Origin: Nevskiaceae bacterium
GTDB taxonomy: Bacteria; Patescibacteriota; Saccharimonadia; Saccharimonadales; UBA4665
DNA length: 24,000 nucleotides
Direction: 5' to 3'
NCBI GenBank assembly: GCA_035526505.1
Contig: DATLCF010000001.1
Span: 133,144-157,143 of the forward strand
The first letter of the stretch is position 1. The number at the start of each line of letters is the position of its first letter. A program made the translations under genes and the position numbers. A model generated the notes under the pieces. It was given only the letters and a program-made list of their open reading frames with translations, had not been told where the DNA came from and did no database searches. This document shows, in pieces, positions 553 to 20,094 of this stretch.

Positions 553-584
553 CAAAAAACCGCTCATATTAGAGCGGTTTTTTG
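553..584. terminator. Bidirectional rho-independent terminator between hsp20 and the pilin array
   Basis: A-run, then CCGCTC (560-565), a 6-nt loop, GAGCGG (572-577), then a T-run. It reads as a hairpin plus U-tract on both strands and lies 16 nt past the stop of the minus-strand gene 600..1019. Confidence 0.65.
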
Positions 585-599
585 CATTAATCCTAGTGT

Positions 600-1019
600 T
601 TAGGCGGTCGTTTCGACTGCTTTGTCCAGAACAAATCGGACGATAAACTGGGCAAGCGCCACAATAATCAACCCGACAACCGCAAAGATAATGGTATTCT
701 TGGCTGCCGATACGTTACCGGAGTCACCACCGGAAGTAATGTATTTAAAACCACCGTAGATGATCATAATTACGGCCACAATACCCACGATGGCCGAAAA
801 AATGTTAACGATAAATGTAATGAGCTTGGTTATGCCACTGGTGCCTGAACTTGTTTGAGCACACCCGTCGCTCGTCAACTTAAGCTCGGTACCTCCACAC
901 AAGTTACCTTGGAGTTCTGTTGCTGCGGCGAATGCCGTCACTGGTACCAGTACGGGAACCGCCACCAATCCTAAACTTACCGCGACAACTGCTAATTTTT
1001 TGCGCAATGACTGCAACAT
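600..1019 (-). CDS. T4SS pilin-like protein, VirB2/TrbC-type, paralog 1
   Basis: 139 aa. Signal peptide (KKLAVVAVSLGLVAVPVLVPVTAFA|AATE) and a two-Cys ectodomain (CGG-x9-C). Then TM1, loop GGFKYITSGGDSGNVSAAKNT, and TM2 (IIFAVVGLIIVALAQFIVRFVL). SD-like AAGGAAAG lies upstream. Confidence 0.8.
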   Translation of the reverse strand: MLQSLRKKLAVVAVSLGLVAVPVLVPVTAFAAATELQGNLCGGTELKLTSDGCAQTSSGTSGITKLITFIVNIFSAIVGIVAVIMIIYGGFKYITSGGDSGNVSAAKNTIIFAVVGLIIVALAQFIVRFVLDKAVETTA

Positions 1020-1053
1020 TTTTAACTTTCCTTTCTTAACGATACTGCTTACT

Positions 1054-1082
1054 TTTATAGCACTCTGAAACTTTATTTACAA
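1054..1082 (-). promoter_or_regulatory. Candidate sigma70-type promoter for pilin paralog 1
   Basis: On the minus strand: TTGTAA (1082-1077), 17-nt spacer, TATAAA (1059-1054), about 35 nt upstream of the ATG at 1019. Confidence 0.35.
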
Positions 1083-1113
1083 TACCTGAAATACAACGGG
1101 CGGACGTGCCGCT

Positions 1114-1563
1114 TTAGCCAGTGGCCCCTGATTTTGCCAACACAAAGCGGACAATAAACTGGGCCATAGCCACGACAACCAGCCCGACCACGGCATACAC
1201 CAATGTGTTGCGGGCAGTATGGACGGCATTGCCGTCGCCCTGGGAGGTTATGTATTTAAAGCCGGAAACAATGATCATAACAATGGCGGCTATTCCTACG
1301 ATGGCCGAAAACAGGTTAATAAGATTTTTTATCGTGGTTTGCAGCGACGATTGCCCGCCACAGCCAACCCCGCCTAATTGGCCAATGCCAGCACATGCAT
1401 CGGCATGCGAAGTACTGCTGCCAATAACTACAGGACCAGGAACATACACGGACGCAGCCGACGCCGCAGGCGTTATCCCTGCAACAAATACGCCGGCAGC
1501 CAGGGCCAGGGCAAAAAAGGTGTGTTTATTTTTTTGTACAAATTGTGCAAGCATAGAAACCAT
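1114..1563 (-). CDS. T4SS pilin-like protein, VirB2/TrbC-type, paralog 2 (alternative start at 1554)
   Basis: 149 aa. Signal peptide ending AASA|ASVY and a Cys pair (CAG-x8-C). Core is IVMIIVSGFKYITSQGDGNAVHTARNTLVYAVVGLVVVAMAQFIVRFVL, nearly identical to paralog 1. AAAGG sits better spaced for the second ATG (MLAQF). Confidence 0.8.
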   Translation of the reverse strand: MVSMLAQFVQKNKHTFFALALAAGVFVAGITPAASAASVYVPGPVVIGSSTSHADACAGIGQLGGVGCGGQSSLQTTIKNLINLFSAIVGIAAIVMIIVSGFKYITSQGDGNAVHTARNTLVYAVVGLVVVAMAQFIVRFVLAKSGATG

Positions 1564-1578
1564 ACCTTTTAATATACA

Positions 1579-1965
1579 CTATGCAATTCTATTCAGAACA
1601 AGTACGACAATTGCCTGCGACAAGGCTGTAACTGCCAAACCGATAGCCGCATATATAACACCTTGACGCCCTTTGCTAAAGTTGCCCGGGTCGCCGCTTG
1701 CCGTTATCATGCGCAAGCCGCCCACAATCACCATAATTACCGCGGCTATGCCGGTAATAACCGAGAGCACGTTCAACACAACCTTCATGGTGGCAATAAT
1801 AGGATTGGTGCTGGTTGGCCTGGCATCCCTACATACATCGGTATTGGCTGCCGCGCCGCTGCAAGTGTCGGTAAAAATGTTTACTGCCCCTGCAGTGCCG
1901 GGCAGGGCCATAACTGGGAACAACAGGGAAGCGGCCATACATAGGGCGACCAGCTTTTTACGCAT
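1579..1965 (-). CDS. T4SS pilin-like protein, VirB2/TrbC-type, paralog 3
   Basis: 128 aa. Signal peptide MRKKLVALCMAASLLFPVMALPGTAGA and a Cys pair CSG-x7-C. Core is VIMVIVGGLRMITASGDPGNFSKGRQGVIYAAIGLAV. Confidence 0.8.
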   Translation of the reverse strand: MRKKLVALCMAASLLFPVMALPGTAGAVNIFTDTCSGAAANTDVCRDARPTSTNPIIATMKVVLNVLSVITGIAAVIMVIVGGLRMITASGDPGNFSKGRQGVIYAAIGLAVTALSQAIVVLVLNRIA

Positions 1966-2294
1966 TATAATATCCCCCGAATGGCAAACGTTACGATAGC
2001 TTCGGCACTTAACGCAATTGCCAACCCGACCAGCGCATACACAATAGTTTGGCGTGCTTTGGCGATTTCCTGCGGGTCACCATCTGCCGTAATAAAGCGC
2101 AGACCAGCCAAGACAATTAAGATAACCGCCAGCACCCCAATAATCCCGAATACAAGCTGCAAAATAACCTGCAGGTTGGCTGTATTGGCACTTACTTTTG
2201 GCAACCCGGTGTCACACTGGCTGCCGCTACCACAGCGAGCCTGGGCAGTGGCAACAAGCTGCAGGGCTGTAGTGATTAGGCCGCCCGCTATCAT
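1965..2294 (-). CDS. T4SS pilin-like protein, VirB2/TrbC-type, paralog 4
   Basis: 109 aa. Short hydrophobic leader and a Cys pair CGSGSQC. Core is VILIVLAGLRFITADGDPQEIAKARQTIVYALVGLAI. Its stop overlaps the start of paralog 3 (TAATG, 1963-1967). Confidence 0.75.
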   Translation of the reverse strand: MIAGGLITTALQLVATAQARCGSGSQCDTGLPKVSANTANLQVILQLVFGIIGVLAVILIVLAGLRFITADGDPQEIAKARQTIVYALVGLAIALSAEAIVTFAIRGIL

Positions 2295-2656
2295 TTGAAT
2301 CTCCCGGCTATAAAGGCAACAACCGTGGCAGCCAATATGGCAATAACCAGGCCGATAATGGCGTTGAGTATCGTCTGGCGAGCCTTAGTGGTTGCCCCCG
2401 GATCACCCTGGCTGGAGATGAATTGAATACCGCCCCATATAACTAAAGCTACCGCAAATAGGGCAACCAGGCGGAGTAAATCTTCGATAATTGCAGCCAG
2501 GATCAGCCAAAGGTCGCTAAGGCCGGAAAGTTGGGGTGTACACAAATGGGTGTTGGGATCGGGGGTACCATTCAAGTACTTGTACCATTTTGGGAAGCCT
2601 AAAAAATCGCCGCCGGGGCACGCCGCGCCAAAGCGCGTCAAGAGTTCGGTTATCAT
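2291..2656 (-). CDS. T4SS pilin-like protein, paralog 5; atypical, with no recognisable signal peptide
   Basis: 121 aa. The N-terminus MITELLTRFGAACPGGDFLGFPKWYKYLNGTPDPNTHLC is not hydrophobic. The same core is present (ALVIWGGIQFISSQGDPGATTKARQTILNAIIGLVI). ATGA overlaps occur with both neighbours. Confidence 0.7.
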   Translation of the reverse strand: MITELLTRFGAACPGGDFLGFPKWYKYLNGTPDPNTHLCTPQLSGLSDLWLILAAIIEDLLRLVALFAVALVIWGGIQFISSQGDPGATTKARQTILNAIIGLVIAILAATVVAFIAGRFK

Positions 2657-3027
2657 GTAAAGAATCCTCCGGGGATAACAAAGTTAAGCAGTGCAAAGCC
2701 AAATATATACACTAACAAAGCAACCACGGTGTTAACAATTCTGTCAACTGCCTTAGCTGTGGCCCCGGGGTCGCCGCGCGACAGCGTGTATTGGATGCCG
2801 GCCCATATTAATGAGGCGATTATGACCAGCCCCACACCCAGCGACAGAAAACGGATGACCCCAAACAGCATATCGGTCAACGGATTGCCAGTGCCAGTAC
2901 ATCCTATATTAATACTGGTGGTTACCCGTTGATTAGCGCCACCGCACTGGGCTGCATAGACCGACAGGGGGACAACCGTAATAGCAAGCGCGACCATAGC
3001 GGACAGTATATGTAGTCGTTGTTTCAT
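2653..3027 (-). CDS. T4SS pilin-like protein, VirB2/TrbC-type, paralog 6; start trimmed to the internal ATG at 3027
   Basis: Starting at 3027 gives the canonical signal peptide MKQRLHILSAMVALAITVVPLSVYA|AQCGG. Cys pair is CGG-x12-C. Core is SLIWAGIQYTLSRGDPGATAKAVDRIVNTVVALLV. The extension to 3087 in the ORF track adds a non-signal-like 20 aa and would overlap the predicted promoter. Confidence 0.75.
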   Translation of the reverse strand: MKQRLHILSAMVALAITVVPLSVYAAQCGGANQRVTTSINIGCTGTGNPLTDMLFGVIRFLSLGVGLVIIASLIWAGIQYTLSRGDPGATAKAVDRIVNTVVALLVYIFGFALLNFVIPGGFFT

Positions 3028-3037
3028 GCTGAGTCTA

Positions 3038-3066
3038 ACTATAGTATCGATTGCACGATGCCACAA
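3038..3066 (-). promoter_or_regulatory. Candidate promoter for pilin operon paralogs 6 to 2 (possibly through paralog 1)
   Basis: On the minus strand: TTGTGG (3066-3061), 17-nt spacer, TATAGT (3043-3038). Only 10 nt separate the -10 element from the ATG at 3027. Confidence 0.35.
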
Positions 3067-3092
3067 GCTGCTCGTGCACAGCCACATTCATG

Positions 3093-3121
3093 TTGTGCCA
3101 AGTATGTAGACGCACTATACT
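3093..3121 (+). promoter_or_regulatory. Candidate promoter for the plus-strand T4SS operon
   Basis: TTGTGC (3093-3098), 17-nt spacer, TATACT (3116-3121), 25 nt upstream of the ATG at 3147. It is divergent from, and similar in sequence to, the pilin-operon promoter. Confidence 0.35.
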
Positions 3122-3146
3122 AGGATGCGTAAGCTAGACGTTTTAT

Positions 3147-4499
3147 ATGGTAATAAAAAGACTCTCGCAAAAGCACCGTACACGTATATTTACGCTTCTG
3201 TTTGGTGCGTTGCTTGTTTTCCCCTTGGCCGCTGGCACTCAAAAAGCCCTTGCAGCCGTGCCCGGCGTTACAAGTTTGTCGCGCTCCGATGCCAATACCA
3301 TCGGCGTAACCACAAGTGTTAATAATGTACCGGCGCCAGGCAATGTTTTAAAGGCTAGCGACGGTAAATCATTTAGTGGCAATATTGTGGTATTTCGTGA
3401 ACCTCTTTCGGTTACCGAATCGTTTTGTTTTGTACCAGTAAAGGCAGCACTTACCGAATCGACTAACCTGGCCGGTCAAAAATCACTGAGCGCCAAACTA
3501 ACGGCGGATACCGCGTCTGCCACTACAACCATACAAGGACCGCCCAGCAATACGGGCGTAGGCTTTGTTATTGTAAACAAATGTTCCGGTGCCCAAATAA
3601 ATCAATACAACAACCAGACAGTGAATGTGCTTGATGCCTGTCTGAATGGTTGTGTGGGCGGCGGCACAAGCGACAGGGAAGGCGACGAGCACGAAACCAA
3701 TCCCACCTGCGAAACGTCGCCGGGCGCCGGCCCGCTCAGCTGGATTTTGTGCGGGATCTACAATACTGTTGCCGATTCTACCGACTGGATCTATAGCAAC
3801 GGCATCCAACCCTTGCTGCGCATGAAGCCCATCCCCATCAGTGATACCGGCAGCAACAAAGTGGTGTTCGAGCTATGGTCCGCCTTCCGCCTATATGGCG
3901 ATATCTTTTTGGTCATTGCCCTGCTGGTTATTGTGTTCGGCCAAGCCATTGGCGGCGGGGTGGTGGAAGCCTATACCGCGCGCAAGGCCTTGCCCCGTTT
4001 ACTCATGGCAGCCATTCTTATTAACATATCTATCTATATTGTAGCGTTTGCCGTGGATGCCACTAACGTTGTTGGCGGCGGCTTGGGACAAATAATGACC
4101 GCACCCCTTACCGATACGGGCAAATTTAATATCCGGCTCGATCTTAGCGAACAGGCCACCTCGCTGGGTGTAGGTGGCGCGGCCCTTATCGGTGCCGGAC
4201 TGGCGGGTGTTATATCATTAGGTAGCTTGGCTTCCGCACTGCCGTTCCTACTACTGTTTGCGGTATTGCCGTTATTCCTGGGGTTACTGGCCATACTTAT
4301 TACCCTGATCGTGCGCCAAGCATTAATTATTTTGCTGGTTATTGTATCGCCCGTGGCCTTTGCCCTGTGGTGTTTACCTAATACCGAAAAATACTTTGGC
4401 CAATGGTGGGAGCTATTATTTCGGGCCTTACTGATATATCCTATGATTGTAGCCTTGTTCGCTATTGCAGATTTAATGTCGGTAATTTTTGGGAGCTAA
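3147..4499 (+). CDS. VirB6/TrbL-like polytopic T4SS membrane protein with an N-terminal Cys-rich extracytoplasmic domain
   Basis: 450 aa. Signal peptide (RIFTLLFGALLVFPLAAGTQKALA), then a ~200-aa hydrophilic Cys-containing region, then about six TM helices. The segment SPVAFALWCLPNTEKYFGQWWELLFRALLIYP resembles the conserved VirB6/TrbL core. Confidence 0.65.
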   Translation: MVIKRLSQKHRTRIFTLLFGALLVFPLAAGTQKALAAVPGVTSLSRSDANTIGVTTSVNNVPAPGNVLKASDGKSFSGNIVVFREPLSVTESFCFVPVKAALTESTNLAGQKSLSAKLTADTASATTTIQGPPSNTGVGFVIVNKCSGAQINQYNNQTVNVLDACLNGCVGGGTSDREGDEHETNPTCETSPGAGPLSWILCGIYNTVADSTDWIYSNGIQPLLRMKPIPISDTGSNKVVFELWSAFRLYGDIFLVIALLVIVFGQAIGGGVVEAYTARKALPRLLMAAILINISIYIVAFAVDATNVVGGGLGQIMTAPLTDTGKFNIRLDLSEQATSLGVGGAALIGAGLAGVISLGSLASALPFLLLFAVLPLFLGLLAILITLIVRQALIILLVIVSPVAFALWCLPNTEKYFGQWWELLFRALLIYPMIVALFAIADLMSVIFGS

Positions 4500-4503
4500 T
4501 GCT

Positions 4504-5724
4504 ATGGCATTGTGGGAAAACTTAGAACCAGTACTTGAGCTTGCAGCCCCTGGGTTTGTATTGCTGTACGGTACTAAATATGCCATCGAAAGAGCCCGCG
4601 GACCGTTAGGCTTTACCTTTGGAAAAACAAGTGAAGTGGGCGAACGGGGACGCAAATTGGCCATGGGCTCGGAACATGACCCCAAAAGCTGGCAAAACAT
4701 GGCCCGTACGAACTTCCGGCGCGGCCGGTTGCGCAGGCGCGAGGCGGTCATTGGCACCATGAATAAACGAGAGCTAGAAATTGGTAAAGGCCAGGAGGGC
4801 AAACTAAGCCTTAAGCAAAGGGCCCAGCGCAGGGTATACTCCACTGCCGCGCGCGCCGTGGGGTACGGGGACTACGAAGGCGCCATATCGGAAGCCAACA
4901 AATCCGAGGCCGAACGTATTGCCACCCACCAAACCTATGGCCCGGACAGCACGGTTCGCGCCCAATGGGCCTACGAAAAAGACGGGCGTTACTATAACTA
5001 TGCCACAGGCCAAGAAATGGCCACGGCAGATGTCAAGATGGCCCGCCGCGTATCTGGTAAAAACCTGTCCGCCCTGCAAGAATCTTTGTCATACGAAATG
5101 ACCAAGGCCGACAACGACGAAACATACGGCAAGCTTATGTCCCGGTACATGGACCGCGCCCAAGAACTTGGCTTATCCGAAGACGAAGCGAATGGCGTAT
5201 GGATTGGTCCAGCCTTTAAAAACAAAACGATGCGCCTGGAACAAAAAGCCCGCAAATTCAAAAAAGGTGCCGATGGCAAGTTCTATGACGCTGGCATTAA
5301 TTACGATTCGTTCTCGTCCGAAGCAGCTAATAAGTTCAAACAATACGACTACAGCGGCATTCAATCTTCTACCTTCGGAGCCATGGGGGATGACATTAAA
5401 GTACTTGCCCAAAAGAACCCTGCGCAGCTGAACGCCAAAGAACTTACCAGAATGCAGCACTACTACCATGCCCTAACAAACCTGGAAGCCCCGACCATGA
5501 TGCCTGGCGGCGATGGCGGTACGCCCGGCGGTGTGCCGGCTGGTGCGCGAGCTGCAAGCTTTGGGGGTAGCGGTGTAAGCAGTGCCCAGGCCAAAGAAGC
5601 TATGTCACTTATTAAGGACGCCGCCCAATACGACAGCCGCATTACACAGTTGCCTTCGTATGCCGGTATGAGCGGCCCTGTAGCTTACCAGGAAGCTCGC
5701 AGCGACTACGGTAAAGCGGCCTAG
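4504..5724 (+). CDS. Hypothetical hydrophilic, basic protein coupled to the VirB6-like gene (T4SS-associated, no family recognised)
   Basis: GGGAG (4491-4495) lies 8 nt before the ATG at 4504. The ORF-track start at 4489 is a TTG inside the upstream gene. No TM segments; charged/helical composition with a G/P-rich stretch near the C-terminus. Confidence 0.55.
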   Translation: MALWENLEPVLELAAPGFVLLYGTKYAIERARGPLGFTFGKTSEVGERGRKLAMGSEHDPKSWQNMARTNFRRGRLRRREAVIGTMNKRELEIGKGQEGKLSLKQRAQRRVYSTAARAVGYGDYEGAISEANKSEAERIATHQTYGPDSTVRAQWAYEKDGRYYNYATGQEMATADVKMARRVSGKNLSALQESLSYEMTKADNDETYGKLMSRYMDRAQELGLSEDEANGVWIGPAFKNKTMRLEQKARKFKKGADGKFYDAGINYDSFSSEAANKFKQYDYSGIQSSTFGAMGDDIKVLAQKNPAQLNAKELTRMQHYYHALTNLEAPTMMPGGDGGTPGGVPAGARAASFGGSGVSSAQAKEAMSLIKDAAQYDSRITQLPSYAGMSGPVAYQEARSDYGKAA

Positions 5725-5736
5725 CCTATACGCTAT

Positions 5737-5765
5737 TTGACACTGACAAAAAATTTGGCTATAAG
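5737..5765 (+). promoter_or_regulatory. Candidate internal promoter with consensus -35
   Basis: TTGACA (5737-5742), 17-nt spacer, TATAAG (5760-5765), with the ATG at 5773 exactly 7 nt after the -10 element (leaderless geometry). Confidence 0.4.
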
Positions 5766-5772
5766 AATCTGT

Positions 5773-6480
5773 ATGGTTGATCCCGGTCTATTTTTGGTCC
5801 AAAGAAGTCATGAGCTTGCAGCAGAAGCACACCGACGCGCCCATATCCCGGTCCTGCCGGCAGCGCAGGCAATAGCCGAGCGTGAGGACAATATACTCAA
5901 ACTTACCGCATATATTGCCGAACAGTTGCGGAAAAAGCGCATAGATCCCGGCATAGTAGTGCACACCCAGGTGCGGTACGAGCACATGTCGGCAACAGGC
6001 ATCACGGAAGCGACAGCTATGATACATGATGAAAAGCCTGGCGATGCGGTAATTGGTAGTGCATGGGAAATAGCGCGCATAGGTGATTCGGCACCGGGCC
6101 AAAGCCCTTACCGCAGGCCCCCTTTGTTACAGCGCGGCATTGGCATTTTAGCAACCGCCGGAGCCGAAGATCTTGTACGCTATAAACGGGCGCGTAACGG
6201 TACGTATTATATAAGTGACGAGGATGGCAGTCCGGATGGCAGGTTCGACCCCGACCGGGCCCAAGGGCCGACATGCATCGATACAGAGCTCCCGGACCGA
6301 AAAAACCCCGAGCTCGTAACGCAGGCCCACCAGGAACTGGGGCTTGTCATACCACCTACTGATTCAGAAAGTGCGCTGGGTATATTCCGACGGTTTTCTA
6401 AAGTCTTAACGATAGAAAACTTGCTTACAGAATACGCCGGTCGCATGGGACTTATACCAAACGATCAAACCCAGGCCTAA
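5773..6480 (+). CDS. Hypothetical soluble protein (T4SS-locus orphan); start placed at the first ATG
   Basis: The ORF is open from 5737 (TTG), and that TTG is part of the TTGACA promoter-like hexamer. First ATG is at 5773. 235 aa with no TM, signal or nucleotide-binding motif recognised. Confidence 0.5.
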   Translation: MVDPGLFLVQRSHELAAEAHRRAHIPVLPAAQAIAEREDNILKLTAYIAEQLRKKRIDPGIVVHTQVRYEHMSATGITEATAMIHDEKPGDAVIGSAWEIARIGDSAPGQSPYRRPPLLQRGIGILATAGAEDLVRYKRARNGTYYISDEDGSPDGRFDPDRAQGPTCIDTELPDRKNPELVTQAHQELGLVIPPTDSESALGIFRRFSKVLTIENLLTEYAGRMGLIPNDQTQA

Positions 6481-6543: not shown

Positions 6544-7701
6544 ATGGCAACATACAAGGTTATCCAGGATATTGAGGCCGAGGACAAACTGATTGGGCCT
6601 TTGAGCTTCCGGCAGTTTGTATATGCCGGCATTTGCGCGCTGTGTTTATACCTAAGCTTTTTGCTCATTAGCAAAGGCGCGGCATTCGTAGCAGTGGTAT
6701 TTTTGCCCGTTATATTACTGAGCGGCTTTTTTGCTTTCCCATGGGGCAGGGACCAACCAACCGAAGTTTGGGCACTAGCGCGTATTCGTTTTATGTTAAA
6801 ACCCCGGCGGCGTATTTGGAACCAAAGTGGCGTCAAAGAGTTGGTAACTATTACCGCACCCAAGCAGTTGGGAACAAATTATACGAATGGCTTAACCCAA
6901 ACCGAGGTACAAAGCCGCCTGCGCGCCCTGGCCGATACCATTGACAGCCGCGGCTGGGTAGTCAAAAATGCCAATCTAAACCTGTACGGCCAACCTGAAT
7001 TAGTTATGGGCGAACCGGCTTCCGATCGTCTGGTTGCTGTCGAAAGCCTGCCGCGGGGTGTATCCAATGTAGAGGTACTGCCATCCGACGACATGATGGA
7101 CGAACACAACAGTCCGGTCGCCCGGCAGTTTGATTCCATGATACAGACCTCGGCCAAAAATCATCGCCAACAAATCTTAGACCGTCTGCAGGGCAAACAA
7201 CTAAGCCCGTCGCCAGCCCAGCAGCAACAGCCGACGCCGGCGTCTAACAACACTGCCCCGGCCAATAATTACTGGTTCCTGAACCCGCCATCGCGCAGCG
7301 CAACCAGCGCACCGCAAGATGCCGTAACATTCAATGCGCAGGTTGTGGCACCTGGCGCGCAGGTCACAGGCCTGCCGGCGCCCATGCCGGGCACCCCCAC
7401 CAGCGACGAAGAAGCGCTGCTGCAGCAGCTTGGTACACAACCGCAGCTGCAGGCGAATCCCTATGGCCATTTACACACTGTTTTGCCCCTTTCGGCACAG
7501 CAGGCTAGGGCCGCCCAACAGCCGGTTGCGCCCCCGGTACAACCCACACTACCACCAGCCATACCTCCAGTGACACAGTCTCCGGCGCCTGCTATACTGG
7601 ATCTTGCAAACAACGACGACCTTAACGTGGCGACCATCGCGCGCGAAGCACAAAAGCGCACCGAGCCGCCCCAAGACGAAGTGGTCATTTCACTACACTA
7701 A
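6544..7701 (+). CDS. PrgI family / VirB3-like T4SS membrane protein with a long P/Q-rich C-terminal tail
   Basis: The N-terminus MATYKVIQDIEAEDKLIGPLSFRQFVYAGICALCLYLSFLLI plus a second TM (AAFVAVVFLPVILLSGFFAF) matches the PrgI-type hairpin. From about aa 219-355 the sequence is low-complexity Q/P/A-rich. Confidence 0.7.
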   Translation: MATYKVIQDIEAEDKLIGPLSFRQFVYAGICALCLYLSFLLISKGAAFVAVVFLPVILLSGFFAFPWGRDQPTEVWALARIRFMLKPRRRIWNQSGVKELVTITAPKQLGTNYTNGLTQTEVQSRLRALADTIDSRGWVVKNANLNLYGQPELVMGEPASDRLVAVESLPRGVSNVEVLPSDDMMDEHNSPVARQFDSMIQTSAKNHRQQILDRLQGKQLSPSPAQQQQPTPASNNTAPANNYWFLNPPSRSATSAPQDAVTFNAQVVAPGAQVTGLPAPMPGTPTSDEEALLQQLGTQPQLQANPYGHLHTVLPLSAQQARAAQQPVAPPVQPTLPPAIPPVTQSPAPAILDLANNDDLNVATIAREAQKRTEPPQDEVVISLH

Positions 7702-7723
7702 TTACTTGCGTATATATAAGTTT

Positions 7724-8752
7724 ATGGAACCTTCTTCACCAAACCAACCGTACGCAGCCCCGGGGGCAGCACCGCCGCCCGGACAACCCCAGCCCGGCGC
7801 TGCCGGACCGGCTTTTGACCCCACAACTGTGGATGGGCACCAGTTTGCAACACCCGGCTATGCACCAGCCGCGGCTCCTTCTATGAATGCCGCACAAATG
7901 CAAGGGCAGGCCATGCCCGCCCAGCCAGGTGTCCCGCCGCAGCCGCAACAAGCCCCTGCCGGGGTAGGAGCACCCGTTACCGGCGGGGGTCCGGCACAAC
8001 CAACCACCAGGCCGGTGCGTGCTGCCAATCCCAACAGCACTCAAAACAGCTTGCTGATTGCCGAGATCCGCGATGGCATTGTTATTATGAGCGACGGTTC
8101 GTTCCGTTCGGTCATAATGGTTAAGTCAATTAACTTCGATCTTATGAGCCAAGCCGAACAAGAAGCGGTTGAATACAGTTATCAGGGCTTCTTAAATTCG
8201 TTGTATTTCCCAATCCAAATATTCGTGCGCTCCCAAAAGGTCGACCTCCAACCCTATGTCGAACGATTGGACAAAATCCGCACCGAGCACGAAAATATGC
8301 TGCTAGCCTTGTTAATGGAAGACTACATTGCCTACATCGACGCCCTGGCCCAACAAACCAATATTATGGACAAAATGTTCTACATTATTATTCCGTACTT
8401 CCCGCACGTTGCTGTGCAAAAGGCTCTTACCCAAAGCAAAACTTTCTTTACCGGCATCATGGGGCTGCTCAATAACAAAGATCAGCACGTGGTTATTAAC
8501 GAAGCAGATCTGGAAACTGCCAAAAATGAGCTGCGCAACCGCGTACAGGTAATTTTAAGCGGCTTATTGCAATGCGGCGTGCAAGCGCTGCCGCTGGATA
8601 CCCAGGAACTTATCGAACTGTACTACGACACCTACAATCCCGACACGGCTACCCGCCAACAGCTCAAAAACTTTAACGACCTAAACGCCGACGTTATCCG
8701 CAAAGGCGCAGGGCGGGTACCGCAAGCTCACTTGCAAAGGGAGTTAGGGTAA
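7724..8752 (+). CDS. T4SS-associated protein: P/Q/A-rich N-terminal region plus a C-terminal domain resembling the non-catalytic N-domain of VirB4-type ATPases
   Basis: Start moved to the ATG at 7724; the 7604 start would overlap the upstream gene by 98 nt. No Walker motifs. The segment IRDGIVIMSDGSFRSVIMVKSINFDLMSQAEQEAVEYSYQGFLNSLYFPIQIFVRS ... MFYIIIPYF parallels the N-terminal part of the downstream VirB4. Its stop overlaps the VirB4 start (TAATG, 8750-8754). Confidence 0.5.
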   Translation: MEPSSPNQPYAAPGAAPPPGQPQPGAAGPAFDPTTVDGHQFATPGYAPAAAPSMNAAQMQGQAMPAQPGVPPQPQQAPAGVGAPVTGGGPAQPTTRPVRAANPNSTQNSLLIAEIRDGIVIMSDGSFRSVIMVKSINFDLMSQAEQEAVEYSYQGFLNSLYFPIQIFVRSQKVDLQPYVERLDKIRTEHENMLLALLMEDYIAYIDALAQQTNIMDKMFYIIIPYFPHVAVQKALTQSKTFFTGIMGLLNNKDQHVVINEADLETAKNELRNRVQVILSGLLQCGVQALPLDTQELIELYYDTYNPDTATRQQLKNFNDLNADVIRKGAGRVPQAHLQRELG

Positions 8753-10647
8753 TGGCACGCAAACAAAAGATGGATGCAGTGGGATTGGCACAGGCCCAAC
8801 AGCAACGTGAGCAGCAAGAAGTTAGTGCGGCGTTCCAAAAAGGCATTACGGCGCTGCGCGACTTTATCGCCCCCAGCTCGCTGGAATTCAACAGCGCATT
8901 TTTCCAGCTGGGCACCCGGCTAGCGCGCACCTATTATGTCTACGGATACCCCCGGCAGTTATACACCGGCTGGCTCAGCCCTGTGATTAACCTGGACGAG
9001 GTCATGGACGTTTCGATGTTTATCTATCCGGTCGAAAGCCAGGTAGTGCTGGAAAACCTGCGCAAAAAAGTTACCCAGCTAGAAGCTGGTATTCAGATAG
9101 ACAGCGAAAAGGGGCGGGTACGCGACCCGCAAAAACAAGCCGCTATTTTGGACGCCGAAGAAATGCGCGACAAACTGCAGGTGGGCGAAGAGCGCTTCTT
9201 CCGTTTTGGTTTTTACTTTACCTTGTATGCCAACAGTCAGGACGAGCTGGAATTTGTTAGTCACAAAGTAGAATCACTGCTGGGCCAACAACTTATTTAC
9301 TCCAAACCAGCCAGCTCACAGCAAGAGCAAGGGTTCAATAGTACGGTGCCGCAGCTTATGGACCAGCTGCAAATCCGCCGCAATATGTCCACTGGCGCCA
9401 TTAGCACCAGTTTTCCATTCACTAGCGCCGACCTCAGCCAGGATAACGGCATTTTGTATGGTATTAACATGCACAACTCCGGCCTGGTTATTTTTGACCG
9501 CTTTAGTTTGGAAAACGGCAACTCGGTGGTGTTTGCCAAGTCCGGTGCGGGCAAGTCGTTTGCCGTTAAGCTAGAAGCCCTGCGTTCCATGATGATGGGT
9601 ACCGAGATATTCATTATCGACCCCGAAAACGAATACGAGCGTATGTGCGATGCCGTAGCCGGTGCCTATGTTCGCTTGAGCCTTAATTCGCCCACCCGCA
9701 TTAATCCGTTCGACTTGCCGCGCGTGGTAGATAACGAAGAGGCCGACAACGCGCTGCGCAGTAACCTTATTACCCTACACGGTCTGTTCCGCCTCATGAT
9801 GGGCGGCGCCCAGGCACAGGTGCAGGGCCTTAGCGCAGCCCCGGCACTCAGCCCGGTGGAAGAAGCCGACCTGGATGCGGCATTAATCGAAACCTATGCC
9901 AAAGCCGGCATTACCAACGACCCGCTGACGCACACCGGCGTCCCGCCCACCATTGCCGACCTGTACGACACACTGCTGCACATGGGCGGTACCGGCCCGC
10001 AGCTGGCCCAGCGCCTGCGCAAATACACGAGCGGCACGTTCGCCGGCATCTTTAGCCAGCAAAGTAATATTAATATCAACAACCCATTAGTGGTGTTTAA
10101 CATCCGCGACCTGGAAGACGAACTGCGCCCGGTAGCCATGTATATCGTACTGAACTATATCTGGAACAAGACCAAAACCGACCGACGGCGGCGCCTGCTG
10201 ATTATTGACGAGGCCTGGCAGCTTATGAAATACGAGGACTCGGCCAACTTTATGTTCAGCCTTGCCAAGCGAGCGCGCAAATACAACCTGGGCATTACCA
10301 CTATCACCCAGGACGTTGAAGACTTTATGGGCAGTCGCATGGGCCGGGCCATTGTAGCCAACGCCAGCATGCAATTCCTGCTCAAGCAAAGCCCCTCAGC
10401 TGTCGATGTTTTGAGTGACGTATTCAAGCTAACCAGCGAAGAGAAAAAACGCCTCAGTCAATTTCCGGTGGGGCAGGGCCTGTTCTTTGCCGGTCAAAGC
10501 CACGTGCATGTACAAGTAGTGGCCAGCCCGACCGAAACCGGCCTGATCACCACCAACCCCCAACAAGTCCAACAGATGCAGCAGGGCGATATGACCCAAC
10601 CCCAAGGTACAATCGACCTTTCCAACCAACTACGTCCGGGAGTATAG
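8752..10647 (+). CDS. virB4: VirB4-family T4SS ATPase (Gram-positive PrgJ/TcpF/TraE type)
   Basis: 631 aa. Walker A is FAKSGAGKSF (GAGKS at 9544-9558) and Walker B is LLIIDEAW (DE at 10207-10212). The N-domain has RTYYVYGYPRQLYTGWLSPVI, and downstream ITTITQDVEDF is typical of VirB4/AAA_10 ATPases. Confidence 0.9.
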   Translation: MARKQKMDAVGLAQAQQQREQQEVSAAFQKGITALRDFIAPSSLEFNSAFFQLGTRLARTYYVYGYPRQLYTGWLSPVINLDEVMDVSMFIYPVESQVVLENLRKKVTQLEAGIQIDSEKGRVRDPQKQAAILDAEEMRDKLQVGEERFFRFGFYFTLYANSQDELEFVSHKVESLLGQQLIYSKPASSQQEQGFNSTVPQLMDQLQIRRNMSTGAISTSFPFTSADLSQDNGILYGINMHNSGLVIFDRFSLENGNSVVFAKSGAGKSFAVKLEALRSMMMGTEIFIIDPENEYERMCDAVAGAYVRLSLNSPTRINPFDLPRVVDNEEADNALRSNLITLHGLFRLMMGGAQAQVQGLSAAPALSPVEEADLDAALIETYAKAGITNDPLTHTGVPPTIADLYDTLLHMGGTGPQLAQRLRKYTSGTFAGIFSQQSNININNPLVVFNIRDLEDELRPVAMYIVLNYIWNKTKTDRRRRLLIIDEAWQLMKYEDSANFMFSLAKRARKYNLGITTITQDVEDFMGSRMGRAIVANASMQFLLKQSPSAVDVLSDVFKLTSEEKKRLSQFPVGQGLFFAGQSHVHVQVVASPTETGLITTNPQQVQQMQQGDMTQPQGTIDLSNQLRPGV

Positions 10648-10665: not shown

Positions 10666-13600
10666 ATGGCGACATACGACGACGAGCAAACAGACGACAC
10701 CGACCAGCCGCAACACACTCCTGGTAGCAATCCTGCGGAGAAACACAATAAAAAAACGACTACAGAAAATCTGAGACAAGCAGAAGATAGTGGTGGAGCA
10801 GCGGACGATGGCGACAACGATGCCGCCGCCCCGGAATCGAACGGCCTTTTTACACCGGATGAGCCAACCGCTCGCGGGACTTCTAAAAGACTCGTTAGCG
10901 TTTTTCGGGGTGCCAGCAAGCGCGATAAAGCTCTTTTTCTGGCTGGCAGTGGCGCAAGTATTGGGCTAGCTGCTGTTTTACTGATAGGGCTGGGCGGCTT
11001 CCTTAAGTTCTTCCAGCTGGACCACCTGATGAGCAATATCGAAAAAAAAGCCTTTATCCGCTATCAGGTAGACATGAACGGCCGTTCGTCCAAATGGATC
11101 AACGCCTATCTAAAACTACGTTTGGGCGAAATTGAAGACCCCAATCTCGCACCAAAAGACCGTGATAACATTTTGTTTCGTTCCAATCGAGTTGACAACA
11201 ACAACCTATTGACCGACTGGTACAAAACCCTGCGTGCCACCAAGTTCGAAAATGAAGTATTCGAAAAAGAGGGTATTAAGTTTACCAGTGTTGCGCATCG
11301 GGTTAATGGTGCTGTGGTATTCCGGCCGGCCGTAATTACTATTAATGACAAACCTATAAAACTCAATCTTACTACGGCTGAGATAAACGCCATTGATAAT
11401 GGCGATGTTAATGGCTTTAATGGCCGGCTAAACGATTTTATCGATGTAACAGCCTTTAAAAACGACAAAGAAGGCCGGGCCGCCATTGCCTCGGTTACCA
11501 AACGCTGGTATCCGCATTGGTACCAAGCCCACAAACGATATATGCTGCGTAAATCAATCCAAAATATGACCGGTATTCGCAGTTGGCGCTTCTTTGAAAA
11601 AACGCGCGATAAAGCCCACGAAGGCTTTGTGGCCACGCGAAATAAGATTCTTATAAAAGCCTTGCCAGAGGATACAAAGAGCGGCAAATGGGTACAATGC
11701 CTGCTAGGTATTGCCGATTGCCGCAATGTTACCAAAGACCCGAACAACCCGGTCAACCGGTCGTCCAGTGCTGTGTTGTCCGAAAATTGTGACGCTCAAT
11801 CTACGAATCCGGCTTGTAAAACCGGCAAAACCGATGCGAACGGCCTGGACGTTAATAACGACGGAAGCGCCGAAGCGGGGGTAGCAGACGGTGTAGCCAG
11901 TGCAGGGGCAGAGGAGGATCTTACCAAAAGCCTTACCAACAAAATATTAAGCCAGGTGCTTAAAAAGCTCAATGCAGCCACAGGCGTACTTTCTGTACTG
12001 GACACCCTGAACAAGATTAACGAAAATATCAAAAAAGGCGCCCTAAGCAATATGGTTTATATAGCCAGAGCCACACAGGCTATGGGGGTATATACCGTGT
12101 ACAACATAATGCGCGATCAAATACGCACCGGCGATCAAGTAACCTCGGCCGAGGTTAATGACGCCATGGAGTCGGTTAATAATGCCGGCAGCAGCCAGGC
12201 CTTCCGCGATGTTATCAACCCAGCCAAAACTACGGCCGCTACCGGCGCCACGGCTTCGGCCGCCGATTTTGCCCCAGCCAAAAATCGCGCCGAATATTGC
12301 AGCTCGCTCCATCAGGAAGCTATGCTATTGCCGCAAAACAAGGATAAAGCCGAGCATGAGTTCCATTTCTTGTGCGCCTCGGAAAAAATAGGTGATGCAC
12401 AGCTGGCAACCAACATCGAAAACGGATGGAAACAGTCCATAGGCGCTGTCTTGTTCCCCATATTAGAAGTCTATAACCGATCGGGTCTAGGCATCGTAAA
12501 CAGCTGGTTCAATGCCGTGGTGGATGCAACTTTCGGCAAAGCCATGTCTGCCATAACCAATAGCATTCTGTCCGGACTTGGTCTGCAGGATAATGTAAAA
12601 GATCTTATGGCATGGTTGATGACCAAGGCCGCGGCCATATTGGGTGCGGGTCCACAGCTGCCTACCAGGGCGCCGGGGGGAATGATTGTCAATCATATTC
12701 TAATGGGGGCCTCCGCCAGTTCTGAGTTTGGGCTTCGCGCCCTGGGCGCAGCCGCTACCAACCCCCAGACGGCCGCAATGGCTAACCAGAATGTCATAGC
12801 CTATCAGACCCAGCAAAACGCCTCTATGAGTTTTAGCGAAAAATACCTGTCGCTATCCAACCCGGAGTCTTCCGCAAGCCAAAGTCTATTTGCCTTTACT
12901 GATGGCAGCAATAACTTTACCGTGGCTTCCATGTTTGGCAAAATGTTGTCCATGCCAGGCACCTTACTGCACAGCAATGCCAAGGCTGCAACCACCGAAG
13001 ATCCGTATGCCGCAGCCAAATTTGGCGGGGTCGACACCTATGACTTCCCCGGTGAATGCCTTAATGTCGACCCATTAACTATGACTCCGGAATCCAGCAC
13101 GAATGCCGACGATTTGGGCCTTATACCAGCTAGTGAACTCACCTGGGATCTGATAAGCAATGGTGATACCTTTAACGACCGGTTATTCCAAAATAATCCT
13201 GACCCGGAAAAAACCAACAAAGTATGGAACTGTGCCATTCTGGATTCCGCGGTGCGGGGCTCTATGGCTGCACCATTCACCAGCGATCTATTAGGTCCTA
13301 ATGCACTTACTAATGGTGGCACCAGCACCGGCTCGACTCCGGCGGAGACGCCGGACGCCACTGGTTGGGCATGGCCAATTAACAAAAACGATTACAAAGG
13401 CATTAGCCAATGCTGGAATGCAGCGCGTAGCGGCGGGCATCACGCCGGTATTGACATCCCCGTTTCCAATAAGCCAGTCTATGCTGCAAACAGCGGTACC
13501 GTAGCAGTAACGGGCTATGACGGTGCGGCTGGCAATTACATGATCATTCGCCACCCTGGTGCAGGCGGCGGTTCGGACCTGTGGTCGACATATGAACACT

Positions 13601-13806
13601 TAAGTTCTATGCGTGTCAAAAAAGGTGACAGCGTTACTGCCGGCCAGCAGATAGGAGTATCTGGCAATACCGGCAACAGTACCGGCCCACACTTGCACTT
13701 TGGGGTTGCCGTGCGGGAAACGTTGGGCAGTTATAGTGACAACTCCCAAACACGCAATCCGCTAAGCTACTTGCCTAAAGACGGAAGGGACACCAGCGGA
13801 TGCTAA
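10666..13806 (+). CDS. Large membrane-anchored protein with a C-terminal M23 (LytM-type) metallopeptidase domain; candidate T4SS cell-wall hydrolase
   Basis: 1046 aa. Acidic N-terminal tail, a single TM (ALFLAGSGASIGLAAVLLIGLGGFLKFF) and a ~800-aa region of unknown type. The C-terminus carries HHAGIDIP (HxxxD) and GNTGNSTGPHLHFGV (HxH), the M23 signatures (about 13370-13790). Confidence 0.8.
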   Translation: MATYDDEQTDDTDQPQHTPGSNPAEKHNKKTTTENLRQAEDSGGAADDGDNDAAAPESNGLFTPDEPTARGTSKRLVSVFRGASKRDKALFLAGSGASIGLAAVLLIGLGGFLKFFQLDHLMSNIEKKAFIRYQVDMNGRSSKWINAYLKLRLGEIEDPNLAPKDRDNILFRSNRVDNNNLLTDWYKTLRATKFENEVFEKEGIKFTSVAHRVNGAVVFRPAVITINDKPIKLNLTTAEINAIDNGDVNGFNGRLNDFIDVTAFKNDKEGRAAIASVTKRWYPHWYQAHKRYMLRKSIQNMTGIRSWRFFEKTRDKAHEGFVATRNKILIKALPEDTKSGKWVQCLLGIADCRNVTKDPNNPVNRSSSAVLSENCDAQSTNPACKTGKTDANGLDVNNDGSAEAGVADGVASAGAEEDLTKSLTNKILSQVLKKLNAATGVLSVLDTLNKINENIKKGALSNMVYIARATQAMGVYTVYNIMRDQIRTGDQVTSAEVNDAMESVNNAGSSQAFRDVINPAKTTAATGATASAADFAPAKNRAEYCSSLHQEAMLLPQNKDKAEHEFHFLCASEKIGDAQLATNIENGWKQSIGAVLFPILEVYNRSGLGIVNSWFNAVVDATFGKAMSAITNSILSGLGLQDNVKDLMAWLMTKAAAILGAGPQLPTRAPGGMIVNHILMGASASSEFGLRALGAAATNPQTAAMANQNVIAYQTQQNASMSFSEKYLSLSNPESSASQSLFAFTDGSNNFTVASMFGKMLSMPGTLLHSNAKAATTEDPYAAAKFGGVDTYDFPGECLNVDPLTMTPESSTNADDLGLIPASELTWDLISNGDTFNDRLFQNNPDPEKTNKVWNCAILDSAVRGSMAAPFTSDLLGPNALTNGGTSTGSTPAETPDATGWAWPINKNDYKGISQCWNAARSGGHHAGIDIPVSNKPVYAANSGTVAVTGYDGAAGNYMIIRHPGAGGGSDLWSTYEHLSSMRVKKGDSVTAGQQIGVSGNTGNSTGPHLHFGVAVRETLGSYSDNSQTRNPLSYLPKDGRDTSGC

Positions 13807-15176
13807 GTATGCACACGATAACCAGATATATCCGGCGCACACTGCTGTTATCTGTTGCAAGTTTATTCGTACTAACACCGGTAGCCAGCGCAGCAACACC
13901 GGCTACCGATTACGATAAGAAGGCCATCTATGGTGCTTCGCCTTTTTATGATCCCAATTACTGTGGGCCTTCCGGCAATAGCACTAATACAGGCGGCAAC
14001 AGCTCCATACCATACAAGCTGCCAGCCAGCACAGGCGAAACCGGCCGCGAAGAATCTATAGATGCCAGTGGCCGGGTACCAAGCACGGGCGAAAAGGTCT
14101 CGTTTGCCAAATATGCCTCGCTTGGCCAGGCCTACCGCGACTACTACATTACTATGCGCTGGACATTTGCATCGTGGAGTTGGGATGGCCACAGCAAAAT
14201 CGTTGACAGCAAGCAACTGGATTGGTTTACCAGCGGTTCCAAGCCGCGCCTGGTACTGGTAACAAACCCTCGCACCCATAAGAGTATTGTTGCTGCTGCC
14301 CTAGAAAGCGGCCCGGGACCATCGGTAGGCACCCAATGGCGAGCCGATCACGGTAATAAGTCATCACCCGCACCCCCTTACTGGCAGGGATATCAAGTGG
14401 GTACACCCAATGGATATGACGGTTTGGTAAGTGGTTTTCCGCCTACCGCCCTGGACGCATTAGGGGCAACAACTGGTTATAGTAGCGATAAAAATCCCGA
14501 CAAGCTTACCTATCAATGGGCTTCTGACCAAGACGCCATGCCAGGGCCAACCAACGAAGTGGCTGCGGCCCAAGCAGATGGCAGTACCTGCGGCACGAGC
14601 GGCACCAATGCGGGAGCAAACGGCTGGGATCTTACCGGTACCCACGCCATGGTTACATACGAGCAATACGATCCTAAATATGCCACCCATCCCTTTGGCA
14701 ACGGTAATATTAAGGACTGTGGCTGTGGCCCTACGTCTATGGCTATGGCCATTGCCACCCTTACGGGCGATAAAAGCGTCACCCCGTCAACCGTGGCAGA
14801 CTACTATGACACACATGGAGGTAGTACCGGCTGTGGCAGCACCTGGAACTGGGCAGTCCTCGGCAATAAATGGGATATCCACGTTGAAAATATTGGCACC
14901 AACCTGGAACAAGCCCGGCAAACAATAAAGGGCGGCGGCCTAGTGTTGGTTTCCTATACAGGACCTCCGTTCCAAGGAAGTAATGGTGGTCATATTTTTC
15001 TTATCCGTGCCGTAACAACGGATGGTAACTTCTATATCGCCAACCCGTTGGGCCATTATGCCGGAGCACGTTGGGCGGACCAAAACACTACCGTGTGGGA
15101 TGCAAAATATTTCTCTACCCAACAGAACGACAAGGGTGGTTTCTTGAAAAATATGTGGGCTATTACTAAAAAGTAG
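13800..15176 (+). CDS. Secreted two-domain putative peptidoglycan hydrolase: C-terminal papain-like (peptidase C39-like) domain and a possible N-terminal RlpA/DPBB-like domain
   Basis: 458 aa. Signal peptide (LLLSVASLFVLTPVASA). DCGCGPTSMAMAIATL plus downstream GGHIFLIRAV ... IANP fits a Cys/His/Asn papain-fold triad. PRLVLVTNPRTHKSIVAAALESGPGP is reminiscent of RlpA-like barrels (weak). There is a 7-nt overlap with the upstream gene. Confidence 0.6.
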   Translation: MLSMHTITRYIRRTLLLSVASLFVLTPVASAATPATDYDKKAIYGASPFYDPNYCGPSGNSTNTGGNSSIPYKLPASTGETGREESIDASGRVPSTGEKVSFAKYASLGQAYRDYYITMRWTFASWSWDGHSKIVDSKQLDWFTSGSKPRLVLVTNPRTHKSIVAAALESGPGPSVGTQWRADHGNKSSPAPPYWQGYQVGTPNGYDGLVSGFPPTALDALGATTGYSSDKNPDKLTYQWASDQDAMPGPTNEVAAAQADGSTCGTSGTNAGANGWDLTGTHAMVTYEQYDPKYATHPFGNGNIKDCGCGPTSMAMAIATLTGDKSVTPSTVADYYDTHGGSTGCGSTWNWAVLGNKWDIHVENIGTNLEQARQTIKGGGLVLVSYTGPPFQGSNGGHIFLIRAVTTDGNFYIANPLGHYAGARWADQNTTVWDAKYFSTQQNDKGGFLKNMWAITKK

Positions 15177-16665: not shown

Positions 16666-17025
16666 CTAGTAGTCCTTAGCTGATAGCTTAGCTACAAAAC
16701 CGCTAAGAAGCCGGCCAACCTCCTCGGTTTTAGCAATAAGCACCACTTGCTTATCGGCATGTACGTAAGAAAGCCTTTCGGCGATAATGAGCATCGATTC
16801 AACCTCGGCTGTTGATCCTTTTGCAATGAGTAGAAATTGACGGAACGCCTTATCGCTTCTCCTTGCATAGCCCTCAGCAATATTGTTCATTATTGAAATG
16901 CTGGCACGCTGTATTTGATCTCTAAAACCAAAGTCCCTTATATTACCAAACGTTCCATAAATATCAACCGTAAGTTCGCTGGCTTTCTGCCACACCACCA
17001 GGTCTTTAAACGACTTTGTACTCAT
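16666..17025 (-). CDS. Four-helix-bundle protein of the 23S rRNA intervening-sequence (S23 ribosomal / Avd-like) family
   Basis: 119 aa. FKDLVVWQKASELTVDIY ... RDQIQRASISIMNNIAEGYARRSDKAFRQFLLIAKGSTAEVESML matches the family hallmark pattern. Confidence 0.85.
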   Translation of the reverse strand: MSTKSFKDLVVWQKASELTVDIYGTFGNIRDFGFRDQIQRASISIMNNIAEGYARRSDKAFRQFLLIAKGSTAEVESMLIIAERLSYVHADKQVVLIAKTEEVGRLLSGFVAKLSAKDY

Positions 17026-19776: not shown

Positions 19777-20094
19777 TGCTGCTGCGCCCTCTCTCACTAC
19801 TCAGGTTATAGCCCTAATATAGTGGAATGTTTCAGACTTTTCCACACATTTTAGAAGGCTACACATAAACTTTGCCAACCACGCAATAGCTGGGTTAAGT
19901 TATGCACAGTAAGCAATCCAATCTGTTAATCTGTGGAAAATACTTGGCGAAACGTGGAAAACTTGCTAGGATTAGTGGGTTAAATATTGTTATTTTCACT
20001 AAAAATAACATCGATTAATACAACAAGCACCATTGTGTGCGGCCAGTGCGTGCATTTGCCCGCCACTACCGTATGCTGTAAAGTGAGAACAGTT
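19777..20094. other. Candidate oriC segment / divergent dnaA-rpmH control region with a DnaA-box cluster
   Basis: Boxes: TTTTCCACA (19838-19846), TTATGCACA (19900-19908), TGTGGAAAA (19932-19940) and CGTGGAAAA (19953-19961). An AT-rich block at 19981-20030 contains a 9-bp inverted repeat. Confidence 0.55.

Follow-up and report, generated by a model that had tools for sequence, protein, structure and literature searches.

The 24,000-nucleotide stretch of DNA analysed here (the window; contig DATLCF010000001.1 of assembly GCA_035526505.1) carries, at positions 600-3027, six successive genes on the minus strand, each coding for a two-helix membrane hairpin behind a short N-terminal segment with two cysteines; we number them P1 to P6 in the reverse of the transcription order, with P6 transcribed first and P1 last. 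[quoted passage not shown] The six proteins are supported as hairpins of the T4SS pilin family inside a T4SS locus, each has its orthologues at the same position in related arrays, the cysteines of their ectodomains come almost always in even numbers, and P1 has a conserved promoter of its own. No new kind of system is involved, as the array is a copy of the six-pilin cluster already described in Saccharibacteria; new here are the positional orthology, the even cysteine counts, the lack of signal peptides in P4 and P5, the promoter and terminator of P1 and the absence of gene conversion in the window. From a fixed set of six classes, one of which has a promoter to itself, a heteromeric structure of defined make-up and with a major subunit is to be expected, and the pilin array is the oddest part of this T4SS, being a pilus-type component in a monoderm system.

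Pilin-family hairpins in six positional classes

Judged against the gathering cut-off of the Pfam family PF18895 (T4SS_pilin, 26.6 bits), five of the six proteins are members, with 50.4 bits for P1 (600..1019, 139 residues), 52.5 for P2 (1114..1563, or 1554 according to the gene caller; 146-149 residues), 34.3 for P3 (1579..1965, 128 residues), 48.3 for the short P4 (1965..2294, 109 residues) and 37.4 for P5 (2291..2656, 121 residues). P6 (2653..3027, 124 residues from MKQRL), the first and most divergent gene of the array, scored 25.9 bits, 0.7 bit under the cut-off; its placement in the family comes from a match to the hidden Markov model (HMM) of the core and from its positional orthologues, its best cross-genome match lying at position 6. 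Its start has alternatives, the longest open reading frame (ORF) reaching 3087 and the gene caller beginning at 2997. Matches to the TrbC/VirB2 family (PF04956, cut-off 27.9 bits) were below threshold for P1 (26.5 bits), P2 (27.3) and P4 (22.6), and the Pfam scan gave no match to this family for P3, P5 and P6. The T4SS machinery genes (VirB6/TrbL_3-like, PrgI and VirB4) are within 8 kb of the array, with VirB4 5.7 kb off, and dnaA (18409-19797) is about 15 kb away, with dnaN and recF adjacent to it. An earlier note on this DNA, made from its letters, had proposed VirB2/TrbC-type pilins, and the PF18895 matches together with the near-threshold TrbC scores inside a T4SS locus uphold that proposal. 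The features of the published Saccharibacterial arrays, namely tandem PF18895 genes of low identity near virB4, a dnaA-proximal position and homologues in Saccharimonadia, were all found here.

A C-terminal core of about 70 residues, made up of the first transmembrane helix (TM1), a conserved G-x(7)-GD...K/R loop and the second helix (TM2), could be aligned across all six proteins, with G90, G98, D99 and L117 (P1 numbering) invariant, and this alignment bears out the common C-terminal architecture that had been claimed for the six consecutive minus-strand hairpin genes. As to the finer motifs, the loop motif given earlier is approximately right, with single-residue deviations in P3, P4 and P6 (alanine for serine in P3 and P4), and the motif K/R-A-R/K-Q/N-T-I is exact in P4 and P5 and inexact in the other four. 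Within the array, identity to P1 is 25-44%. We found 6292 homologues of P1, the best being 54-66% identical over 96-100% of the length; in the protein collection no relative is closer than 66%, and identity is at most 64% among the 80 related loci listed from species-representative genomes. P5 has 74 homologues, 40-69% identical at full length. The AlphaFold2 model of P1 predicts a hairpin (H54-95/H100-138) with a predicted local distance difference test (pLDDT) score of 81-91 in the core and below 50 in the ectodomain, and that of P5 predicts a hairpin (H47-81/H86-119, pLDDT 87-98) with a small N-terminal beta-hairpin at 30-41, at an overall pLDDT of 86 and a predicted template modelling score of 0.70.

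A search of species-representative genomes with the VirB6-like protein gave 106 pattern matches of which none was confirmed, and an alignment of P1 homologues was used instead to collect related loci. The contigs with close P1 homologues (L001-L006) share a layout of hsp20, six pilin genes and a VirB6-like gene. One HMM per array position, built from the window and five relatives, was then applied to the pilin ORFs of the species-representative loci; the 66 complete arrays classified in this manner lie outside the training set. Six genes are present in 46 of these 66 arrays and the class order 6-5-4-3-2-1 is kept in 45, the commonest variant (9 arrays) being the addition of a second P1-class gene. 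Free of any model, the best BLASTP match in another genome was at the same array position for 296 of the 300 members of 50 six-gene arrays, with the six genes of the window all among the 296. In the core, orthologues share an identity of 0.54, paralogues of the same genome 0.35 and paralogues of different genomes 0.34; since paralogues are no closer within a genome than between genomes, there is no concerted evolution. The core of P1 is the most conserved (mean orthologue identity 0.78). P1, P2 and P3 form a closer subgroup, with P1 and P2 as the closest paralogues (cores 60% identical), and P4, P5 and P6 are each distinct. By these comparisons of sequence, the six genes are ancient, position-specific orthologue classes kept in fixed order across Saccharimonadia and not interchangeable copies.

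One or two extra P1-class genes stand at the array end in L013, L042, L043, L044, L045, L054, L059, L063, L070, L084 and others, and among such duplicates the promoter box is usually on only one copy. In 11 other genomes, the extra P1-class copies have cores that are 67-86% identical and ectodomains that are only 25-63% identical.

The near-identical nucleotide runs that had been noticed between P1 and P2 do exist in the window, as a 14-nt exact run within a 49-nt stretch of 80% identity, but they exceed nothing seen between genomes: P1 and P2 taken from different genomes have a mean longest run of 11.5 nt and a maximum of 23, with the same core nucleotide identity (63%) as in the window. Because the window runs are no longer than these, they point to a shared motif and not to recent exchange; P1-P2 gene conversion in the window was accordingly rejected, and the check for conversion among the paralogues that had been called for gave no signal there. 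In L006 (~8539-9423), P1 and P2 share a 96-nt identical run in the core, with identical codons at 73% of the conserved residues. This tract looks like gene conversion, so exchange can occur in the family; the window holds no such tract.

Cysteine pairs, leaders and ectodomain variation

The segment ahead of the hairpin is 20-50 residues long and is predicted to lie outside the cytoplasm, usually with one disulfide staple. In the translations of P1 to P6 the two cysteines are 11, 10, 9, 5, 25 and 14 residues apart, exactly as had been noted, and the window has 12 cysteines in about 190 ectodomain residues and none in the six cores. Chance does not account for this pattern. Exactly two cysteines beyond residue 25, spaced 9-15 apart and mostly in a C-G-[STGA] context, were found in 120 of 120 P1 homologues. 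Among the array members of related genomes, the ectodomain cysteine count is even in 468 of 485 and odd in 17: P1, P2, P3 and P5 mostly have two, P6 ranges from 2 to 12 (mostly 2, 4, 6 or 8), and P4 mostly has none, or two (none in 53 and two in 21 of 77 orthologues). Because cysteines are gained or lost in pairs, as in the P4 class, and the cores in the window are free of them, we infer that disulfide bonds would form in the ectodomains, outside the cytoplasm. Cysteine parity is in any event a simple biochemical handle on these proteins.

Leaders of the Sec type are present in P1, P2, P3 and P6. P4 of the window is without a clear Sec signal peptide and only 14 of 77 P4 orthologues have a segment resembling one, while P5 has no signal peptide in any genome.

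The N-terminal regions had been described as unalignable. This holds for the paralogues, owing to their age, but the ectodomains of orthologues do align, with 96-100% of the length covered. In each class, ectodomain columns show a higher entropy than core columns, with 2.26 vs. 0.78 bits in P1, 1.82 vs. 1.35 in P2, 2.32 vs. 1.74 in P3, 2.08 vs. 1.72 in P4, 2.56 vs. 1.40 in P5 and 2.91 vs. 1.58 in P6, and the ectodomains are about as variable as the signal peptides. Conserved islands in the ectodomains comprise the two cysteines and the glycine that follows, NPI in P3, LPKVSA in P4 and F-x-G-x-P-x-W-Y-K-Y-L in P5. The last belongs to a longer N-terminal motif of P5, F-G-A-x-C...F-x-G-x-P-x-W-Y-K-Y-L, in which P22 and W24 are invariant and C13, F18, Y27 and L28 are at least 90% conserved among the 74 homologues.

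Nonsynonymous and synonymous divergence (dN and dS) were estimated by the Nei-Gojobori method on codon alignments of the six orthologue sets, but in nearly every pair dS was infinite or had reached saturation, and the dN/dS ratios are unusable. For dN itself, P1 and P2 alone have an ectodomain that exceeds the core 2- to 6-fold (2.3-5.6 in the comparisons made with the window), and in P3-P6 the two are about equal (window vs. L001/L002). The term hypervariable, applied earlier to all six ectodomains, was thus an overstatement, as these regions vary about as much as signal peptides and keep their cysteine pair and class motifs; in P1 and P2, the faster change of the loop may leave room for a role in host specificity.

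Expression signals and the readings of the array

The P2-P1 spacer (1020..1113, minus strand) contains a promoter and a ribosome-binding site for P1, both read from the sequence and conserved in relatives. The promoter consists of a -35 element TTGTAA (1082-1077), a 17-nt spacer and an extended -10 element TGcTATAAA (1062-1054), and it is followed by the Shine-Dalgarno sequence AAGAAAGGA (1037-1029) and then ATG. Across 44 orthologous P2-P1 spacers, a -10-like element is found in 43, its TG extension in 36, a -35 TTG in 39 and a GAAAGG Shine-Dalgarno in 43, and the consensus over the relatives is TTGAAA-N17-TGtGCTATAAA. This spacer measures 94 nt in the window and has a median of 73 nt in relatives vs. 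0-10 nt at the other four junctions; in the window, the latter are overlaps of 4 nt (P6-P5), 4 nt (P4 start and P5 stop) and 1 nt, and then a gap of 15-24 nt. With four of the five junctions overlapping or at most 24 nt long, the layout fits co-expression of the pilin genes. The promoter for P6-P2 is presumably located within the divergent intergenic region (3028..3146) between the array and the VirB6-like gene, where no conserved extended -10 element was found, TGnTA[TG]AA being present upstream of P6 in only 5 of 48 related arrays.

Downstream of P1, and shared with the convergent hsp20 gene, is an intrinsic-terminator hairpin, AAAAAACCGCTC-TAATAT-GAGCGGTTTTTT (554..583, minus strand). The 90 nt 3' of P1 fold to -28.9 kcal/mol, and a stable hairpin with a T-run follows P1 in 43 of 48 related arrays. 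A generic promoter and terminator scan missed both signals, as its rule wants a T at position 6 of the -10 element and the T-run of the terminator is within the stem; they came to light on reading the sequence and through their conservation across species. Given a promoter in the P2-P1 spacer, P1 would be transcribed alone as well as with the operon. Its own conserved promoter, Shine-Dalgarno sequence and terminator, together with the most constrained core, make P1 the likely major subunit.

In the most probable mechanism, the VirB4/VirB6 machine would co-assemble the six classes into one hetero-oligomeric structure, either pilus-like or a conduit, in which P1 may provide the bulk and P2-P6 may be low-copy, specialised subunits (initiation, base, tip or adaptor), comparable to the major/minor pilin sets known from type II secretion and type IV pili. 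If VirB2/TraA pili are a guide, the disulfide loops at the N-termini would decorate the outside of the structure, and its lumen would be lined by the conserved loop. The likeness to type IV pili and type II secretion pseudopili is one of function only, since fold and machinery are unrelated; as suggested by gene organisation, it consists of a separately promoted abundant subunit, co-transcribed divergent low-copy subunits and disulfide-bonded loops on exposed parts. The earlier suggestion of a heteropolymeric assembly is therefore the one that the new evidence favors. A bolder form of it, which we consider less likely than not, is that the array would build the first hetero-polymeric and the first monoderm T4SS pilus, with a shaft of P1 (together with P2) whose variable, disulfide-stapled N-terminal loop would determine the host bacteria open to the epibiont for attachment or feeding, P3-P6 as dedicated initiation, tip or anchor subunits, and a major/minor pilin logic that arose independently of type IV pili.

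Several observations weigh against a co-assembled VirB2-like set, as evidenced by: 1) a Foldseek search of the P1 and P5 models against the Protein Data Bank (PDB) found nothing beyond generic hairpins, such as those of ATP synthase subunit c, ESCRT-III and chemoreceptors, and a PDB sequence profile search yielded MacB and cytochrome bd alone, at E above 0.3, with no solved T4SS pilin; 2) the link to VirB2 depends on the Pfam family assignment and on sub-threshold TrbC scores, such that a structural tie to the solved VirB2/TraA pilins is compatible with the models but unproven; 3) the related loci were picked by similarity to P1 and represent one clade; 4) 20 of the 66 arrays are off the canonical order, mostly because a P1-class gene is present in addition or because the HMM missed a member; 5) the cores of P1, P2 and P3 are alike (0.42-0.66 identity), so these three could be partly redundant; 6) the division into major and minor subunits is suggested by a promoter motif and by conservation and not by expression or abundance; 7) in the passages of PMC12857230 on the Saccharibacterial T4SS, no pilus was seen and a pilus is treated as a possibility only.

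The nearest described counterpart is in Southlakia epibionticum, for which passages of PMC10633639 report six divergent VirB2-like pilins in a T4SS, essential by Tn-seq of the pilin series. Quinonero-Coronel et al. (2025; PMC12102498) counted, in 383 Patescibacteria assemblies, 441 VirB2 arrays with 2-11 genes each, the mean identity being 25% and the maximum 54%, at a locus near dnaA, and likened them to those of Bartonella and Anaplasma; according to the passages of PMC12857230, no T4SS before the Saccharibacterial one had been shown to be essential for the bacterium that encodes it. That the array is unusual and largely unexplored, as had been stated, is accordingly outdated (PMC12102498, PMC12857230). 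The cluster of S. epibionticum ML1 (within SEML1_0006-0019) resembles the window in its six tandem, divergent genes for PF18895/VirB2-like hairpins, and with the 441 arrays it shares, by the published accounts, a T4SS locus that is relaxase-less, related to MPF-FATA and dnaA-proximal, and a low identity within the array. The window differs in coming from an uncultured environmental genome, and it was likened to ML1 through published descriptions and not through ML1 sequences. The passages at hand of the papers on ML1 and the VirB2 arrays make no mention of a fixed class order, cysteine parity or a P1 promoter. Diderm VirB2/TrbC/TraA pilins (PF04956) have in common with the window proteins a small two-helix hairpin, a short polar loop and a T4SS locus, with leaders in four of the six here; the window proteins are set apart by scores below the PF04956 cut-off, an N-terminal extension with paired cysteines, six classes instead of one and a monoderm host.

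Of the alternatives, the one that fares best, though we consider it a good deal less probable than co-assembly, is that they are parts of a channel and not of a pilus, the hairpins remaining in the cytoplasmic membrane or building no more than a short stalk across the wall as structural components of the translocon, much as small pilin-like proteins do in monoderm conjugation. The T4SS belongs to the monoderm MPF-FATA lineage, which generally has no pilus according to passages of PMC12102498 and PMC10633639, there are no reports of a filament, and P4 and P5 are without a cleavable signal peptide. In addition, all six proteins match NF045849, the "Mbov_0395 family pilin-like conjugal transfer protein" of mycoplasma integrative and conjugative elements (ICE), at 24-35 bits (E 1e-8 to 2e-5), below its cut-off of 40 bits, and P3 and P5 have sub-threshold matches to DUF6112. 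A dedicated strong promoter on one subunit, however, suits a polymerising bulk component better than a part of fixed stoichiometry, the conserved extracytoplasmic segments with paired cysteines suggest exposure outside the cell, and the nearest Pfam families are pilin families. As an observation on NF045849 itself, its hairpin of about 80 residues aligns to all six cores and one close P1 homologue bears its name at NCBI; with the DUF6112 matches, this suggests that VirB2-like hairpins exist in other monoderm conjugation systems as well. That would run contrary to what is, to our knowledge, the usual statement that monoderm T4SS lack such hairpins.

It is unlikely that the pilins are a repertoire of surface variants, used as alternatives or in mixtures, whose exposed loops diversify to serve host range, adhesion or evasion, as in Bartonella TrwL and Anaplasma VirB2. 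What speaks for such a repertoire is the higher entropy of the ectodomains in every class (1.8-2.9 bits vs. 0.8-1.7 in the core), the 2- to 6-fold higher ectodomain dN of P1 and P2, the extra P1-class copies with divergent ectodomains, the 96-nt tract in L006 and the adaptation to different host strains floated in a passage of PMC12102498. The trwL genes of the Bartonella Trw system and virB2 of Anaplasma phagocytophilum are, as in the window, several genes of the VirB2 family whose surface varies more than the core; passages of PMC12102498 describe them as tandem amplifications with variation, tied to antigenic variation or host-cell range. The window array, in contrast, comprises ancient classes of fixed number and order, with one orthologue per position and no homogenisation. 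The sequences do not show lineage-specific amplification, with orthologues at 0.54 vs. within-genome paralogues at 0.35, 296 of 300 best matches at the same position and six genes in 46 of 66 arrays, and neither concerted evolution nor a conversion signal in the window was found. Moreover, relaxed constraint suffices to explain ectodomains that are as variable as signal peptides, P3-P6 show ectodomain dN about equal to core dN, the gene overlaps imply co-expression, and the pilin series of S. epibionticum is reported to be essential (PMC10633639, in part). On these grounds the switchable or antigenic variation that the earlier note had entertained is not borne out, and the results speak against transferring the Bartonella/Anaplasma model to this array.

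That the six are Sec-secreted effectors is very improbable: the leaders of four of the six are of the Sec type and the six-gene array of TM7x (Nanosynbacter lyticus), likewise six small secreted or membrane proteins beside T4SS genes, was first annotated as "six putative effector genes" or a "Sec secreted array", said to be kept across Saccharibacteria (bioRxiv 10.1101/2022.03.25.485537, cited in passages of PMC12102498 and PMC12592800), but two long hydrophobic helices per member would hold the proteins in the membrane, all six match the pilin HMM, and the cluster was later re-annotated as pilins (passages of PMC10633639 and PMC12102498), a reading that the window proteins back.

Neighbouring genes and taxonomic assignment

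Across the divergent intergenic region, the plus strand begins with the VirB6/TrbL_3-like gene, recognised by Pfam and synteny, which yields a single product of 928-1200 residues in relatives but, as tblastn shows, is split in the window into ORFs 3147-4499 (frame 3) and 4489-5724 (frame 1), corresponding to residues 300-574 and 602-818 of the L001 protein, respectively. The split may be genuine, or it may come from a frameshift or from an error of assembly. Past the stop and in the same frame as 4489-5724 is the ORF 5737-6480, which had no match among the relatives' proteins at E <= 1e-3, including a separate 229-residue product of L006. It is followed by genes for a PrgI/VirB3-like protein (6544-7701), the TraC-like N-terminal part of VirB4 (7604-8752) and the VirB4 ATPase (8752-10647), all on the plus strand and assigned by Pfam and by synteny with L001-L006, whose syntenic products carry TrbL_3, PrgI, TraC-like and P-loop_TraG matches. 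VirB4 as two adjoining genes, one for a TraC-like/TrsD-like N-terminal part and one for the P-loop ATPase part, is an arrangement found in relatives as well. Two further plus-strand genes after VirB4 were assigned by Pfam to an M23 peptidase of 1046 residues (10666-13806), whose peptidase domain is at its end, and a C39-like peptidase of 458 residues (13800-15176), and these are possible cell-wall hydrolases of the T4SS, in the role of VirB1. The scan of 25 proteins, which took in ORFs outside the array only from 100 residues upward, showed no relaxase or VirD4 coupling protein family.

Beyond the C39-like peptidase gene are recF, dnaN, dnaA, yidC and jag, and recF and dnaN flank a member of the "23S rRNA intervening sequence protein" family (16666-17025; PF05635, 112 bits). 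Four antisense ORFs over the array (1121-1666, 1673-1999, 1981-2298 and 2729-2932) were rejected as genes; they matched no Pfam family and were taken for shadows cast by the hydrophobic genes. No RNA genes came out of the Rfam and tRNA scans of the window. The window matches a Logan contig from SRR8554898. The NCBI proteins identical to those of the window, HUS25861.1 and HUS25879.1, carry the label "Nevskiaceae bacterium", a gammaproteobacterial family. All named close homologues and almost all of the 80 related syntenic loci listed are from Saccharibacteria/Saccharimonadales (metagenome-assembled genomes), and because gene content, synteny and close homologues agree on Saccharimonadales, the label is probably wrong and the host a member of Saccharimonadia.

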